Shown in pieces: positions 6,785-47,233 of a stretch of DNA of 64,000 nt. Position 1 is the first letter of the stretch, and each line of letters begins with the position of its first letter. The DNA is from a virus. Its lineage: Duplodnaviria > Caudoviricetes. The stretch is from the IMG/VR virus record IMGVR_UViG_3300032167_000083, positions 1-64,000 of that record. One strand, 5' to 3'. Below the pieces are notes generated by a model. It saw nothing but the letters and a program-made list of their open reading frames with translations. It had not been told where the DNA came from and made no database searches. A program made the position numbers and the translations under genes.

Positions 6785-8156
6785 TTAATTATTAAACCAT
6801 TTTTCATTAACATATTTTCTCATTTTCCAGATATAATCGACCATTTGTTCATCTGGAATCTGAAGTTCTGGATTAAAAATATCTTGAAGATTTCCAAGTT
6901 TTTCTGTAATCCAAACTTTTTTAGTTTCTTGGTCTCTATAAATAAAGAAACAATGAGTTTTATTTATCTTATGAATAGAATAACCATCCCCTTGAACACA
7001 ATACTCTAAGAATTTTTTAGCATCATTTTTATTTTTAATTTTAAATCCATGTTCATGTCTTATTAACATAATAATTCTCCTTTCATTTTTTAAAATTTTA
7101 TCCAAAACTTATATAAATCTTCGTCAATAACAAAATCAATCAAATCTTCTTCAGACTCGTATTCATAAGTTTTTTTTAATTCTTCTAAATCTTCAAATTC
7201 TTCAAAATATTCTTTGAATTCCAATCTTGCACACTCTTTACAAAGTTTTGCTTTATCAATTTTATAATACCCATTATCTAATTGTTCTCCACAATATTCA
7301 CATGTTTGTTCTTCTTCATCTTCTTCATCAGGATACCATAACTCCATATCACGAGCATGTAGCATACTATCATCATTATTATTGTAATACATATTTCAAC
7401 ATCCTTTCTTTTGTTTTTTTCTTATTTTATAAAGTTTACAGATACCATTATCTAATACATTATAGCAAATAATTTCATTACTTACTGTTAGTTCAAGATA
7501 ATCTTTTTTTTGTTTCATTTTAAATTTTATATCCGATATACCATATTTTTCTTGAGTTTCTTCTCTGTATACATTTAAAATTTTAGAATCAAAAAATATA
7601 GGCAAAGAAGCATATTTATTCATTAGTATCACCTCTCTTGTTTTATCCACAATTACCAAAGTATTCTTGATATTCCTCACTCCATTCAAAAGCAACATAA
7701 TCATCAGTATAAAGCTTCATAGCTTGATTAATAGTAGCAATAGTGTGAGAGGACATGATGTCTAAACCATGTCCAAATTCTTTTTCAGCTTCATCATGCA
7801 ATTCCTGAAATATTTCTTGTTCTGTTTCTGGATAGATTATTAAATGCATTTCATCATCATCTATCATTGTAACAAGTTTAAAGACAATAGGATATCCATT
7901 ATCTACCCATTGTCCTTGAGATATTGCAAGGACTTCATTTACTTTTTTCCAATCTACTTTTTTCATTTTATTACTCCTCCTCTGTTAATGATGAAATAGT
8001 ACCATTATCGTTCCATTTGTACCCCATACCATGTAAGACATCTTCGATAAACCATTCTTCCTGAATACCATCTTGAACTTCTGCAAGCAGAGCATTACCG
8101 CAATAAATTTCCAATGTGCCATCATTTCTTAGATTTGTGTTAATAACGTTTTTCAT
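6785..8156 (-). CDS. run of five small hypothetical genes (6785-7105, 7090-7392 Zn-finger-like, 7396-7704, 7643-7966, 7971-8156)
   Basis: Closely packed ORFs with RBSs; true starts often at the internal Met after an RBS. Confidence 0.65.
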
Positions 8157-16409: not shown

Positions 16410-16593
16410 TTGACAATTGTAAAAAATTATGTTATAATATTGATAATGAGTGAGTTTGTGAGCCTCACTCATCATAATATTATTTATGAATTATCTGCAA
16501 GCAGGAGCAGAAAACTCACTACGATTTTCGCTGATAATAATCTTTTTAGATGTATCAGCTTTGAATGACTTCTGAATGGAGTCATTCTTTTTT
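16410..16593 (+). ncRNA. antisense sRNA candidate 1 with own promoter and terminator
   Basis: TTGACA(16410)-N17-TATAAT, 5' hairpin, AATTATCTGCAAGCAGGA core, terminator GAATGACTTC/GGAGTCATTC+T-run. Confidence 0.65.
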
Positions 16594-16610
16594 ATTATCA
16601 AATCACCCAT
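16491..16610 (-). CDS. 39-aa peptide ending PACR
   Basis: RBS AAGGATGTGA + ATG; MGDLIIKKNDSIQKSFKADTSKKIIISENRSEFSAPACR. Confidence 0.6.
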   Translation of the reverse strand: MGDLIIKKNDSIQKSFKADTSKKIIISENRSEFSAPACR

Positions 16611-16692
16611 AATATCACATCCTTTTAATTAAAATCTCAAAATAAAATGCTCACAATCATTCTTTAAAATACAATCATAAACATCACTCCTT

Positions 16693-26156: not shown

Positions 26157-26350
26157 TTGACATTTTCTTTAAAGTGTGTTATAATAAAATTAAGATAAAG
26201 AGAGGATGTTGAGTCCTCTCGATATCTGTCAGAATTAATTATCTGCAAGCAGGAATAACTAATTCTTTTTTATGCTCGTTGTGAGTCACCGATCCTGACT
26301 CAACAACTAATTTCCAGATGGTTTCGTTTTGGAAGCCATCTTTCTTTTTT
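26157..26350 (+). ncRNA. antisense sRNA candidate 2 with own promoter and terminator
   Basis: TTGACA(26157)-N17-TATAAT, 5' hairpin GAGAGGA/TCCTCTC, AATTATCTGCAAGCAGGA core, terminator AGATGGTTTC/GAAGCCATCT+T-run. Confidence 0.65.
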
Positions 26351-26361
26351 AGATTAACCAT
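26239..26361 (-). CDS. 40-aa peptide ending PACR
   Basis: RBS AAAGGAAGTGA + ATG; MVNLKKKDGFQNETIWKLVVESGSVTHNEHKKELVIPACR. Confidence 0.6.
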   Translation of the reverse strand: MVNLKKKDGFQNETIWKLVVESGSVTHNEHKKELVIPACR

Positions 26362-26788
26362 AATATCACTTCCTTTCATGTAAATTATGCTTAACGTTAT
26401 TCGTCACCCAACAAAATACAATTAAATCATTTCAATATTTGATGAAAATCCAAGTCTTGCATCATTACAAACCTCATTAATTATATCTTTTCCGATATTT
26501 TCCATGGTATCTTTCCCATACAAATTACAAAGATTTTTCCAAATCTCATAATTCAACATGCCTTTTGATAAATAATAGTTAATGCTATGTACTATCATTT
26601 CCTCTTTAATCATCACTTCTGTTTTCATTTTTTTCTCCTTTCGATTTCTTAATTGTTTCTTCTGCTTCTGAATATGTGTCCTCAGAACCAATGAATTCAC
26701 CATTAAAATAAATTTCATAATGTCCTCTATTGTTGATAATTTCATAGTTATCCATAATATCACCTCTTTTTCATTATATTTATATAAA

Positions 26789-27268: not shown

Positions 27269-27604
27269 TTATTTTACACTTTTTATTATATAGTTTTTAT
27301 CCCAATCTGTCAACTCATCAAAGATAACAGTTATCATTGTATCTTCTTCGAATTGTTCTGGATTGTCTGTTGTGAAGCTATATAATTTGTCATTAGGATG
27401 TCTAATAATAATTGTATTACCTTCAATTGAATGTATTGCACATTCTCTTGTTCTGTTAGATTTAACATACAAAGGTGTGATTAATAAAGCTAAAATAGAA
27501 ATAAATACAATTACCCCAAGTATTCGCTTGTTTCTCCTTTCTCTCTTTTTTCTTTGAACTTCTCTGAGGAATCTTCTTCCCTCAAATGAATAGTTTTTCT
27601 CCAT
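27269..27604 (-). CDS. membrane-anchored protein, paralog of 32860..33297
   Basis: Basic N-terminus, one TM; R.C.I...I.HPN...Y.F...I.V.F.EL shared. Confidence 0.7.
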   Translation of the reverse strand: MEKNYSFEGRRFLREVQRKKRERRNKRILGVIVFISILALLITPLYVKSNRTRECAIHSIEGNTIIIRHPNDKLYSFTTDNPEQFEEDTMITVIFDELTDWDKNYIIKSVK

Positions 27605-28391
27605 AACTATTCTCCTTTCGTAAAATATTAGAGTGTTGACCACTCAAGTAAAGCTTAATAATATTAAACTTGACTTCAATAGTCAACTGCGGAAATCCAG
27701 AAATTTCGCCTATATAGAGTTTTATTTTTAAAAATATTCAGTTTGAAAATATTTTTCTATTTTTTAATCGCCCTATAACATTAAACCCTCTGGGATTTTC
27801 ACAAAACCCATACAGTATTTCACAATAAACCATAGGCTGTCTGGGATAAAATGTTTTGTCTTTCTTTAAAACATTGCCAACATTACCTAACACACCGAGT
27901 CCTTCCTGTTCCACTGTACTTTTTCACCTCCTTATCTTATGTACAAGGTGGATTTCCCACACCAAATAGTTCTTTGAAGGGTGAACATTTCAATTTCCCA
28001 TGTAAACAAATTCAAATAATTAACACGCATAGCCTTCCACAACTATGCATATTAATTGTGTATTTTTGAATTTGCTGAGATATTATATAATATCTCTTTA
28101 AACACATCAGAAATTATTTCTATATTTCTAATATGCTTAAAGAGACACTACATAAGTGCCTCTTGTTTTTTATTAGTCGAACTTTGTAGCCCAACCACTA
28201 TCATCTCTTTCTGGATTGTACATTTAAATCACCTCCATATTCTCATCAGAGTATTTTAACTCTTTTGAGTAATATTCCTCTATTGATATCTTTCCATCAA
28301 GATAATCTTTATCTCTTTGAGAAAGTCCATCATAGTCTTTAAGTGATAAATAACAATATAATGAATATGCATTCATTTTCAATACATCCTT

Positions 28392-43023: not shown

Positions 43024-45038
43024 ATGCCCAATAGATTATTTTATACAGCTAAGTTAAAGAGTAGTTTTATTATTGAGAATCACTGTGATATACATAAAAA
43101 TTTCTATGAACTACTTATGGCAAATAATATAATTTCATTAGCTGATTCTCAAATGTTGAGAACTATTCGACAATTAACAAATCATGAAATTGATTTGGAA
43201 AAATTGGAAGATTGGTATCGGGAACGAGATATTATTAAAAGACGAAAAAATTCTAAAGAAAACAAAGAACGAATAAGACAATTACAAAATAATATTTATA
43301 ACATGATGTTTATACCCGAATATATCACTGTGGTGATAGAAAAAGAAAAAGATTATGATTTATTCTTTAAAAGAGGATTTAAATTTAATGGTGATAAATA
43401 TACGAGATTGTCTTGCTCTGCTTCTCAGGCAAGAGTAAATACTGTTGTTTTTATAAAAGATGAACTTAAACAACAAATGCAGGATATTCTTAATAATGGA
43501 CGAAAGATGGATAAGCCGATGGCTCCAAGTAAATTTAATGCTTATTTTGGGTTGTATTCATCTGCTACAAAACAAGTAACATATCCAAGATTTTGTATTA
43601 TTCCAGATTATTGTGAGATGGATAGAGTTAAGGTTGATTTTGTAACTACTACAGATGATTTCTCTGATGATATTCTTGATGAAAGAACTATTGATGTGGA
43701 GTTTAATCGTTTTGATGGAAATGGATTAATTAGTCCTCAAATGGCTGAACAATGGAGTATAGATATTGGTATTTATAATCCTAATGCAGAAAATGAAGAT
43801 GATAAAGGATATATTGCTTGTCAATTTTGTATTAGACAAAGTTTTACAAAAGGCATGTTATGTACTTTTGATTTTCTTAAATTTTGTAAGGAAAAGAATA
43901 ATGAAAATTATATTATTAAAGATGTTTATGGACATAATGTTGATTTAAGAGAGATTGATGTTATTCTTACTGAAGGACAAGTTAAAATGTTCGATCATTT
44001 TGGATATGAAAAAGATGGTGAATGGATTCCATCTCAAGAAGTCTTTGAAAATAATATTAAGAAAAATAATTTATTTTGGGGTGTGACTCGTTTTACACCT
44101 GAACAAGATGATAGAGTTCTTATTACCAATTATCAATTTTTACAAACCTTAAAAATGACAGATGAAGATATAGAAGAATTATGTCAAGATACTGTTAATT
44201 ATTTTAAGGGTGTTTGTTCTGGAGATTATAATTATGCGTTATTGTTTATGCTTGGAGATAGTATGAATGAGAGAAAGATGCAGAATTATATGAAATCCAG
44301 TGATAATTATTGGTTAAAAAGTTTAATATGCAATCCTAATTTATTCAATGATAAATATACAAAGCAAAAGATTAAAGATTGTATTGAAAGAAGAATAGAA
44401 CAGGCTTGTATAGGAAAAATTTTGGTTGAAGGAAATTTTCAGGTTCTTATTCCAGACAGTTATGCTTTTATGGAGTGGTGTTGTTATAGAGATCCAATGA
44501 AAGTAAAAGGTTTATTAAAAGCAGGACAATGCTATAGTAAATTTTGGAAAGACAAAGATAAACATAAAATTTTATCACAAAGGTCTCCATTAACTCATTT
44601 TAGTGAATGTCATTTAATGGATGTAGTTTGGAATGATGATATTGATGAATGGTTTAAATATAGTTATACTGGATTTTATACAAATATACATGATGAAAGT
44701 GTTATGCTTTGGTCTGGTGCAGATTTTGACTATGATATTTGTGCGAGTACATCTAATCCAGTAATGATTAGATGTGTTTATAAAAACCAGAAACCAGTAA
44801 CATATGATGTTCCTAAACCAAAGAAAATGTTATTTACAGAAACAGATTTATATAATTTTGATAAAAAAAGTTTTGGTTCTTTAATAGGTCCTCTTACGAA
44901 TCATGGAACAAGTATTATATCTTTAATTTCATATTATAGAGATAGATATAATAAATATCATGATGAACTTGATTTAAGAAAGTTAAGATTATTAGAAGAT
45001 AGATTAAAGATGGTATGTGCAGGTCAGTCAAGACAGAT
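43024..45038 (+). CDS. YonO-like single-subunit RNA polymerase, exon 1
   Basis: SASQAR, FDGNGLIS, FCIR..FTKG, NYQFLQ, RSP and GADFDYD motifs; synteny with HU, terminase and capsid as in SPbeta. Confidence 0.85.
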
Positions 45039-46359
45039 GAAATATTGTCTGCGTATATGGTAACATATATGAAAAATTAGTGGTGAACCTATAAATATAG
45101 GGTGTATAATTTACGGTAAGGAATCGTAGGAAATGACGATTAGAAATTATGCTAACAGGGGATTCTAAGGATTTTTATTAATCTATGAAAATCCTGTGGT
45201 AAGCTATTTTTTGGTGGTTGTAAAAATTAAAAAGGAGGTGAAAAAGGGTAAAATGAAAGAAGGATATAGACCTCATAATTTTATTGATAGAACGAATATG
45301 AGATTTGGAAAATTAGTATGTCAAGAATATTTAGGACAAGGAAAATGGAAATGTTTGTGTGATTGTGGAAACACACATATTGTAAAAGGTGATGATTTAC
45401 CTGTGAATAGTAAAAAAAGAGGAGTTAAGTCTTGTGGGTGTGGGCATTTAAGTAAAACTTGTCCTGATATTAATTATTTTAAAAACATTAATACTTCTGA
45501 AAAAGCATACATACTTGGATTATTAGCATCTGATGGAAATATTTATAATTATAATAATAGTTATTATGCTACGATTAGATTAAAATATACAGATGTAGAT
45601 ATCTTAGAAAAAGTAAAAAAAACTATGAATATAACTTCAAAAATCACATATCAAGAAGAAAATGTTGTTTTCCCACAAGGTAATCAAGGTATTGCTAAGA
45701 TGTGTTGTTTAAGGATTTATGGAAAAGAAATTATTAATGATTTAATTTCGTATGGTTTAGTTCCAAATAAAACATTACATTTGAAAGTTGATTATAAAAA
45801 AATACCAAAAGAATTCGTAAGAGATTATTTAAGAGGATTATGGGATGGAGATGGAACTTTTGGTTTTTATGAACGACAAAATAATTCTCATACATATGAA
45901 GTTCATTATATTGGCTCTTCTGAAATAGTTAATGATATTAAAGATATTATCTTAGAAAATTTTCCACATTACAAAATTGATACTTGGCATGCTAAAGAAT
46001 GTAATGAAAATATTTTTAGATTAGGGTTATCTCGTAGAGATGATTGTATAGAATTTTTAAATTTTTTATACAAAGATGCTAATATATATTTAGATAGAAA
46101 ATATCAGAAGTATATTGATTGTATAGATTTAGTTAAATCTATTCCTTTTAAAAAATCACCATGTAGAAATTAGAAACTTAATCGACTATCCCAAATGGAG
46201 GTGGAATTCCTCAATAGGAGTAGGGGAGAGGTGAAAATCCTTTCTGGGTGAAACCCCCTTAAATCGAAGTGCCACAATCCTAATTATTTAGGATTAAGAT
46301 ATAGTCAAAACCGACTCATATGAGTGTTAAAGTACTATGAAAATAGCGGTATGTAAATG
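45039..46359 (+). mobile_element. group I intron (IA2-like) with homing endonuclease
   Basis: Exon ends in U, intron ends in G; P3 GTGGT/GCCAC, P7 GACTAT/ATAGTC, S element AAGATATAGTC, P8 AATCCTAA/TTAGGATT; splicing restores Q-I-D-K-T-K-I-G. Confidence 0.9.
45253..46173 (+). CDS. intron-encoded LAGLIDADG homing endonuclease
   Basis: YILGLLASDG and YLRGLWDGDG motifs, YL.RKY; N-terminal RFGKL..WKCLCDCG..SCGC module. Confidence 0.88.
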   Translation: MKEGYRPHNFIDRTNMRFGKLVCQEYLGQGKWKCLCDCGNTHIVKGDDLPVNSKKRGVKSCGCGHLSKTCPDINYFKNINTSEKAYILGLLASDGNIYNYNNSYYATIRLKYTDVDILEKVKKTMNITSKITYQEENVVFPQGNQGIAKMCCLRIYGKEIINDLISYGLVPNKTLHLKVDYKKIPKEFVRDYLRGLWDGDGTFGFYERQNNSHTYEVHYIGSSEIVNDIKDIILENFPHYKIDTWHAKECNENIFRLGLSRRDDCIEFLNFLYKDANIYLDRKYQKYIDCIDLVKSIPFKKSPCRN

Positions 46360-47233
46360 AGATAAAACAAAAATTGGACAAGAAGTAAAAGCAATAGCTA
46401 AAATATGGAAAACATTTCGTCCAATAAAAGAGACTGACACAGAACAAGAAAGAGAAGAAAAAGAGTTTTATAATTCTATTCTTTCAGATAGAAAACCATA
46501 CTTTTTTAAGTATTTATATAAAGATTGTAAAACAACCTATAATACAGCTTATAAAAGTTTTGATAAAGAGTCTCGTAGGAGATATGGAATAACATTAAAA
46601 GAATTAATGAATATAGAAAATATAACAGAGGAACAAGAGAAATTAATTAATCATTTTATTTCAGAAACAAGACTTATTATGTCTGACTGTGAAATGAATA
46701 GATTATGTAAACATATAGAAAATGCTAATTTTGAAATTAAATTAAATATAAGAGATGATTCTAAATTTGATTATATGTATTTTTTTGATGAAAATATTGA
46801 ATGGAAACAAGAAACATATGAGAAAATTTTTGAATTAATGAAAATGTTTAGTTTAAGTAAAAAATCTAATAAACTTGCTAATTCTTTAAGAGAAAATCAG
46901 AAAATAGGAGTCAAATCTGATAACGAAGTAACTAATGGTAAGAAGCTTGAAATAGAAGTAATGAGAAACAGATTGCTTGAAGAAGGGACTTCAGATAGTC
47001 GTGAGTTATGTAATTATCTTTTGAAGATTTTTTATGAAGATAAGAGAAGTTGGGATAAAGGATTGTTGTGGAAATTAGTTGGAGATATTTTATATGAACG
47101 TTGTTTTAATAAAAGTAATGGAAATATAAGAGTTCCTGTTTTAGATAATGATGGAGATATTATTTTTTATAATGATAAATTTAGTGTAAGAGATGTGAAT
47201 ATAAATAAAGATGAGGAAGTGAACCCATGCTAA
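46360..47233 (+). CDS. YonO-like RNA polymerase, exon 2
   Basis: Open frame from 46361 (DKTKIG...DRKPYFFKYLY) continuous with track ORF 46607..47233; spliced product 962 aa. Confidence 0.85.

Follow-up and report, generated by a model that had tools for sequence, protein, structure and literature searches.

Bacteria, plasmids and prophages provide well-known examples of cis-antisense control and of type I toxin-antitoxin pairs, and the type I pairs include those of Clostridioides difficile phiCD630 as well as txpA/RatA and bsrG/SR4 of Bacillus subtilis. A comparable antisense pair of phage origin is sar and ant of P22, while the promoter-early stem-loop (PeSL) elements are mobile regulatory cassettes of T4-type phages. 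To our knowledge, the early regions of large lytic phages have rarely been examined for cis-antisense or type I pairs. Expression of the OOP RNA, which comes from a constitutive promoter, is described as suppressing the activities of phage lambda CII (PMC5869508).

The locus described here lies within a 64,000-nt stretch of phage DNA, referred to below as the window, and comprises a small ORF on the − strand and a convergent, predicted antisense RNA on the + strand (copy 2). The first-pass annotation had presented it as the second and diverged copy of a small-ORF/antisense-promoter cassette, and all the features that it named are found in place, together with the diverged paralogue (copy 1) at 16410–16625. 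Judged by its sequence, the locus is a previously undescribed small-protein/antisense-RNA family of an already familiar regulatory kind, and it is filed here as one that would work like a cis-antisense or type-I-style pair, outside any described family. The favoured explanation, which stands somewhat better than an even chance of being right, is that a small phage protein made early is held in check by a cis-antisense RNA, in a layout like that of type I toxin-antitoxin pairs or of lambda OOP/cII.

Like type I pairs, the locus combines a short ORF that has a strong Shine-Dalgarno (SD) sequence with a predicted convergent small RNA for which a strong promoter and a separate terminator are present, and it is likewise phage-borne and present in more than one copy. 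Unlike them, it encodes a hydrophilic peptide that lacks a membrane helix and finds no sequence or model match, its overlap spans almost the whole ORF and not just the 3' end, and its carrier looks lytic. By sequence it also resembles lambda OOP/cII and P22 sar/ant, in that a short antisense RNA ended by a terminator would be transcribed inside an early operon against the coding sequence of a small protein, but it has no homology with either, occurs as two paralogous pairs in one genome and belongs to an uncultured low-GC phage that is not lambdoid. As in PeSL elements, a module of promoter and hairpins recurs between small early genes and has recombination joints at its margin; in contrast to them, the promoter here is on the + strand, antisense to a − strand gene block, and a conserved ORF is part of the module.

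The window corresponds to bases 34935–98934 of a 102,205-base virus record which is rated 66% complete, and has a G+C content of 27%. Its right part contains + strand genes for an exonuclease, a holin, the large terminase and a portal protein, and small − strand ORFs fill a 35-kb run (5991–40930) inside which both copies of the cassette are situated. A search against PHROGs assigns a named function to only one ORF of this leftward block, a thymidylate-kinase-like match, and the block has the look of the early or host-takeover region of a large lytic phage. GC skew tracks gene direction, with its only turning points at ~5 kb and ~41 kb, away from the cassettes, and a replication origin at the cassettes was dropped for this reason. 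The portal protein has a single match among GenBank phages (25% identical), and a search of IMG/VR with the portal protein and with a downstream 208-aa protein returned no match, and no close relative is present there. The DNA runs containing the sequence are metagenomes of animal gut or faeces, bovine and goat samples among them; no RNA run is among the 24 runs listed as containing the phage, and a search of the sequence for tRNA and tmRNA genes found none.

The antisense promoter of copy 2 (26157–26185, + strand) consists of the −35 hexamer TTGACA (26157–26162), a 17-nt spacer with TG, and the −10 hexamer TATAAT (26180–26185), and scores 12/12 with an extended −10 (TTGACA-17-TGnTATAAT), from which a + strand RNA is predicted to start near 26192. 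Loose promoter matches are no more frequent in this A/T-rich DNA than in shuffles, and only perfect matches exceed chance: the 102-kb genome contains 11 of them, whereas 300 block shuffles average 0.40, and in nine of these 11 the TG is combined with a 17-nt spacing, which no shuffle reproduces. Five perfect promoters are inside the window, the copy 2 promoter among them. In the leftward block, the two cassette promoters are the only perfect ones on the + strand, both at the same position relative to their paralogous small ORFs; the remaining + strand perfect promoters head + strand operons. Several of the + strand perfect promoters have an upstream ATTTTA-type motif, which is present in copy 1 too. 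Conservation of the cassette promoter is seen between the two paralogues alone, because the single readable relative, the metagenomic locus L042 described below, is cut before the promoter.

Some further promoters are recorded for completeness. The early promoters have a common upstream ATTTTA(G/T)ATA motif. A perfect − strand promoter at genome position 22217 was discarded, as it sits inside a + strand ORF, lacks the TG and has no structured RNA downstream. Upstream of the window, at genome positions 4578 and 32728, the + strand has two more promoters of the perfect extended −10 type, each followed by at least 200 nt of hairpin-rich sequence with no ribosome site, which makes these sequences candidate phage non-coding RNAs.

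The predicted 161-nt RNA of copy 2 folds with −51.4 kcal/mol, against −31.7 ± 3.6 kcal/mol for its shuffles, and the z scores of RNA folding are −5.42 (this RNA), −5.19 and −4.08, each with 0/200 shuffles as good. Four hairpins are predicted in it. The 5' hairpin H1 (26200–26220, + strand; GAGAGGA/TCCTCTC) has an energy of −12.7 kcal/mol (z −4.2, 0/200 shuffles as good), a slight advantage over the −10.2 kcal/mol of the − strand, on which it follows the small ORF and resembles a weak terminator; on the same strand, the H1 of copy 1 has no U tract. The second hairpin, H2 (26231–26266, + strand), is an A/T-rich stem, AGAATTAATTAT/ATAACTAATTCT, around CTGCAAGCAG (26243–26252) and is followed by TTTTTT. 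With one A.C mismatch in its stem, H2 is marginal on the + strand (−6.1 to −6.6 kcal/mol, z −2.0, 10/200 shuffles as good) and stabler on the − strand (−10.2 kcal/mol), and the stop codon of the small ORF sits within its arm. H2 is possibly an early terminator that would yield a short RNA isoform of ~75 nt, and it may also matter for the mRNA.

The third hairpin, H3 (26278–26307, + strand; GTTGTGAGTCA/TGACTCAACAAC), reaches −12.5 kcal/mol (z −4.2, 0/200 shuffles as good) and overlaps the hypervariable central codons 19–28 of the small ORF. It had been annotated as an extra hairpin of copy 2, a description that does not hold, as copy 1 has a counterpart at the equal relative place (16530–16559; −11.0 kcal/mol, z −4.1, 0/200 shuffles as good). 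H4 (26316–26350, + strand) is an intrinsic terminator hairpin with a U tract, formed by a 10-bp stem (26316–26341) and then TTCTTTTTT, where the U tract overlaps Lys codons 5–7 of the small ORF. Its energy is −13.9 kcal/mol on the + strand versus −8.3 kcal/mol on the − strand, and the terminator hairpin of copy 1 behaves alike (−12.4 versus −7.8 kcal/mol); both contain G.U pairs, which turn into A.C on the opposite strand. A + strand terminator thus has good support from the predicted energies, and its greater stability on this strand in both paralogues favours a real antisense RNA. No Rfam family matches at its gathering score, and the best models in an E-value scan are ctRNA_pND324 (25.3 bits, cut-off 45) and SIB_RNA (14.1, cut-off 56). 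The 5' hairpins of the + strand also contain ATG ORFs of 10 codons, MLSPLDICQN (26206–26238) and MSEFVSLTHH (16448–16480), which were rejected as genes; they have no SD spacing and no mutual similarity, and are probably an accident of the hairpins.

The small ORF of copy 2 (26239–26361, − strand) has 40 codons and a stop codon, and its translation, MVNLKKKDGFQNETIWKLVVESGSVTHNEHKKELVIPACR, ends in PACR. It is preceded by the SD sequence AAAGGAAGTGA (26376–26366), which with its spacer occupies 26362–26376 (− strand), outside the antisense RNA, and by a leader (26377–26412, − strand) that is kept in L042 and contains at best a weak promoter, TTGGGT-16-CATAAT. The SD motif AAAGGA[A/T]GTGA, 4 nt before the ATG, is kept in copy 1, copy 2 and L042, and the 20-nt SD/start block as a whole is conserved in both paralogues and L042, although it lies beyond the antisense terminator. 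The predicted protein is hydrophilic (GRAVY −0.54) and basic (pI 9.0), and that of copy 1 has a GRAVY of −0.56 and a pI of 9.4. As the best 15-residue Kyte-Doolittle windows reach only 0.17–0.23 across both peptides, neither is predicted to contain a membrane helix. Pfam returns nothing above any cut-off for the peptide, the best score in the Atlas look-alike search is 0.78, and the AlphaFold2 model (mean pLDDT 59.9, pTM 0.23) is too poor for use. The small ORF is very probably a real translated gene, as indicated by its relatives, by the codon comparison with L042 and by an SD/start block that is kept outside the antisense RNA. K5, K6, D8 and F10 are among the residues kept in both peptide subtypes (see below), and their codons fall within the U tract and stem of the antisense terminator, where constraints on RNA and protein are thus superimposed.

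The sequence shows a promoter, a terminator, folding and coding constraint; transcription of the RNA, its pairing with the message and a resulting drop in the protein are inferred. In the sequence of events proposed here, leftward early transcripts, for which a perfect promoter lies ~950 nt upstream at 27313, would reach the ORF of the basic, soluble protein of 40 residues, and the + strand promoter of consensus host type would give rise to an RNA of ~160 nt with four hairpins, possibly along with the ~75-nt form ending at H2. The antisense RNA would stop at its own terminator ~9 nt short of the start codon, and its complementarity would therefore extend over codons 4–40 and the 3' untranslated stretch and leave out the ribosome site. 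Owing to the perfect complementarity, a 155-nt duplex, and with it action in cis, would be unavoidable if both RNAs are made. Pairing would lead to cleavage of the duplex or a block of translation, by which the small protein would be limited or timed, and it may also affect downstream genes of the same transcript. Cleavage and loss of translation are known outcomes of such duplexes and are reported as the action of type I antitoxin RNAs in PMC6563280 and PMC8594479.

Phage SPO1 is described as having an early block whose host-takeover proteins are potentially cytotoxic (PMC6873191), and by analogy a need to limit such a protein appears plausible. That the protein of the present locus is a host-takeover factor needing a low level is a guess; the pattern of a soluble 40-residue product, fast-changing in its middle and conserved at both ends, would be in keeping with a factor in contact with a host target. 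The locus, provided that the RNA is real, would offer a compact and self-contained example of a phage limiting its own early protein, as well as two natural paralogues for studying the specificity of RNA–RNA control.

The same layout would be expected of a true type I toxin-antitoxin module, in which a toxic peptide and a labile RNA antitoxin serve addiction, the exclusion of competing phages or timed killing. Typical of such modules are the strong SD, the ORF length below 60 codons and the predicted small RNA that would converge on the ORF and overlap it under a stronger promoter, and the presence of two copies is common among them; type I pairs are described on prophages of low-GC Firmicutes (PMC7699646), and RalR is described as a type I toxin of the non-membrane kind (PMC4041452). 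However, type I toxins are characterised as usually small and hydrophobic (PMC6563280), whereas both peptides here are hydrophilic, no Pfam family is found at its curated cut-off and no Rfam family at its gathering score, and the carrier looks lytic with a long early block, where addiction would have no obvious use. A toxin-antitoxin function in this strict sense is thus considered unlikely, and limitation of an early protein by a cis-antisense RNA is preferred.

Copy 1 is built on the same plan. Its antisense promoter (16410–16438, + strand) also scores 12/12 with TG, and its predicted antisense RNA (16446–16596, + strand; z −5.19, 0/200 shuffles as good) contains H1 (16446–16472), an 18-mer shared with copy 2 (16489–16506), H3 (16530–16559) and a terminator (16563–16587) with a T tract. 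The small ORF of copy 1 has 39 codons (MGDLIIKKNDSIQKSFKADTSKKIIISENRSEFSAPACR) and likewise ends in PACR, occupies 16491–16625 of the − strand together with its SD, and has P0011 as its relative. The two peptides are 39% identical, and alignment of the two copies reveals only three conserved blocks, namely the promoter hexamers, the exact 18-mer and the 20-nt SD/start block. The 5' and terminator hairpins had been said to differ in sequence between the copies and yet keep their pairing, and this is borne out, as both fold in both copies. Since the RNAs are unrelated outside the three blocks, it is a fair inference from the sequences that pairing would be mainly cognate. The duplexfold energies of the non-cognate RNAs are −75 and −79 kcal/mol against a background with a mean of −49.5 and a minimum of −75.4 kcal/mol, but these long-range energies are too crude for use. 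When three sequences are folded jointly with RNAalifold, copy 1 is out of register and double changes occur in only 3 of the 20 predicted pairs, too few to be informative. The family profile, run against 2610 six-frame ORFs of the genome, matches the two copies and no third (next E-value 0.58). The proteins flanking copy 1 are unrelated to those flanking copy 2, and L042 has a different left flank, so the cassette is a unit of its own and not the leader of one particular gene.

The shared 18-mer, AATTATCTGCAAGCAGGA (26237–26254, + strand in copy 2), spans the P-A-C-R codons with the stop codon and two more bases, and its two exact copies in the 102-kb genome are those of the two paralogues. 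The first-pass annotation had read a conserved CUG-CAAG-CAG core hairpin into this region. This could not be upheld: the stem has only 3 bp, copy 1 folds CUGC/GCAG with an 8-nt loop instead and has no A/T-rich outer stem around the core such as that of copy 2, and in L042 the outer stem of H2 is retained with the loop CTTATTGG in place of the core. The decamer CTGCAAGCAG occurs three times in the window (0.02 expected) and three times in the 102-kb genome, always on the + strand, and two of these occurrences are the cassettes. The third, TCTGCAAGCAG (window 8081–8090, + strand), lies inside an early ORF of 61 codons on the − strand (7971–8156) and has no + strand promoter nearby; it may be due to chance, or may be a target in trans of the antisense RNAs. 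In genome_contigs, which represents 185,579 species by one genome each, the 18-mer gives 28 scattered single matches, about the number expected by chance, with no shared context. An RNA anti-CRISPR or solitary CRISPR repeat was also considered and rejected, as these 28 loci have one match each and no arrays. A 16-mer of the core matches 39 loci in IMG/VR, in none of which a related ORF is found.

Plain cis-antisense control gives no account of an exact 18-mer in otherwise diverged paralogues. By its sequence, the shared 18-mer would put the message of either copy within reach of the other's antisense RNA, and its identity would also be expected if the + strand RNAs were mainly trans-acting sRNAs using it as a seed for a common phage or host message, with an incidental overlap of the ORF. 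The third decamer would suit such a function too, as it is on the same strand and the message of the early ORF 7971–8156 would bear its complement. However, the motif is absent from L042, and most type-2 peptides (14 of 16) end in PIR or DYR and so would lack it as well; the matches in genome_contigs are at about the chance number and without shared context, and the perfect complementarity to the overlapping ORF would impose action in cis in any case if both RNAs exist. A mainly trans-acting role is thus distinctly unlikely.

Relatives of the peptide were collected by protein searches throughout, which return broken copies only if their fragments have been called as genes. The word-indexed protein search yielded six proteins from six candidates, four of which are relatives other than the window's own, and the profile search of 1.84 billion protein representatives gave six matches, comprising four true short relatives (one of the copy-1 type) and two long repetitive proteins, P0009 (1726 aa) and P0010 (362 aa), which match over short stretches only and were set aside as spurious. 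Adding the cluster members gave 18 distinct peptides in two subtypes (alignment A5), 16 of them beyond the window's own and from gut metagenomes. About 20 contigs in ENA, Logan and IMG encode P0004–P0024 and P0011, several of them 2–5 kb and two above 100 kb in length. Type 1 is represented by P0001 and P0011. Type 2 (n = 16) is characterized by MVNLKKKDGFQNETIWKLV, about eight variable residues and NEHKKELVIP, followed by the end IR, ACR or DYR. As most type-2 peptides end in PIR (13/16), while ACR (2/16, the window's copy 2 and P0020) and DYR (1/16) are rarer, PACR does not define the family. P0020 combines the PACR end with the other central allele, an ENPKIEV centre, so the parts assort. 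The three indels found among the peptides (−2, −3 and +1 residues) are all in frame, and no frameshifted or fused form was returned by the length-unrestricted profile search, although protein databases reveal broken copies only partly.

Nucleotide searches add one locus. The metagenome scan reduced 265 pattern matches to L042, a contig of 1250 nt that ends inside the cassette before the promoter. In IMG/VR, the peptide profile gave 69 pattern matches, none confirmed, and the pattern of the SD block hit at least 110 loci, where none of the 31 short ORFs among the matches listed is related. None of the 66 pattern matches of the peptide profile in genome_contigs was confirmed either, and GenBank phages gave no match to blastn (301 nt) or to tblastn with both peptides. 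As far as these searches reach, the family appears confined to one lineage of animal-gut phages.

Over 37 aligned codons, L042 differs from the window in 14 (6 synonymous and 8 non-synonymous), and seven of the 14 are found in the contiguous codons 20–27, each with 2–3 base changes, which looks like a block replacement. Outside codons 20–27, six of the seven differing codons are synonymous (including TTA to CTC) and one changes Val to Ile, an excess that holds only with this block, chosen post hoc, set aside and is thus indicative only. In H4, a U.G pair of the window is U-A in L042. The replaced block affects H3, which is weak in L042 (−5.2 kcal/mol, z −1.35, 20/200 shuffles as good), and conservation of this hairpin through the replacement can therefore not be claimed. 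The similarity between L042 and the window stops at ...CACCCAAC, which places the boundary of the cassette at 26412. Directly beyond it, window positions 26413–26645 contain an ORF of 69 codons (26422–26631) with a ribosome site which is absent from L042, so that this indel abuts the boundary.

An extended version of the favoured reading assigns a double role to ~25 nt, which would encode the hypervariable middle of a host-directed protein and at the same time the specificity hairpin H3 of the antisense RNA, so that strains would diversify both together, while through the shared 18-mer the two pairs would regulate each other as a single circuit that may reach the early ORF 7971–8156. This proposal is speculative, and the chance that it is correct is small.

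The locus may alternatively be a boundary or shuffling cassette, the hairpins and head-on promoter of which punctuate the leftward operon by termination, polymerase collision or duplex cleavage and perhaps provide recombination joints, with the ORF as a passenger. The end of the L042 similarity exactly at 26412, where the window has the extra 69-codon ORF, the mosaic alleles exemplified by P0020 (ENPKIEV centre with the PACR end) and the terminator-like H1 of copy 2 on the − strand are consistent with such an element. On the other hand, the promoter faces against the genes, which is not the case in PeSL elements, the H1 of copy 1 has no U tract on the − strand, and the coding constraint and conserved SD of the ORF indicate that it is not a mere passenger, all of which makes this explanation very unlikely.

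The − strand transcripts also fold better than their shuffles (z −3.4 and −4.3), and with hairpins predicted on either strand, some of this structure could be of use to the mRNA. That the promoter matches are inactive altogether and the hairpins belong solely to the small ORF's mRNA, for its stability or for attenuation of downstream genes, would agree with this folding on both strands and with the better H2 of the − strand, but is highly improbable in view of the perfect extended −10 promoters that both of the diverged paralogues have at matching positions, with 0 such sites in 300 shuffles, and of U-tract terminator hairpins that are 4.6–5.6 kcal/mol better on the + strand in both copies.

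Two further regions of the window deserve mention. On the − strand, ~27690–28160 comprises ~450 nt without a convincing ORF, is somewhat G+C-richer than its surroundings and contains a 17-bp hairpin (28018–28057) and another at ~28140–28165; with no Rfam match and no tRNA found in it, this stretch may be another non-coding RNA. In the right part, an HNH endonuclease ORF (45196–46173) is located between two ORFs that match positions 62–625 and 689–821, respectively, of the 847 positions of phrog_8308, and the region as a whole (43024–47233) looks like a gene split by the insertion of a homing endonuclease.
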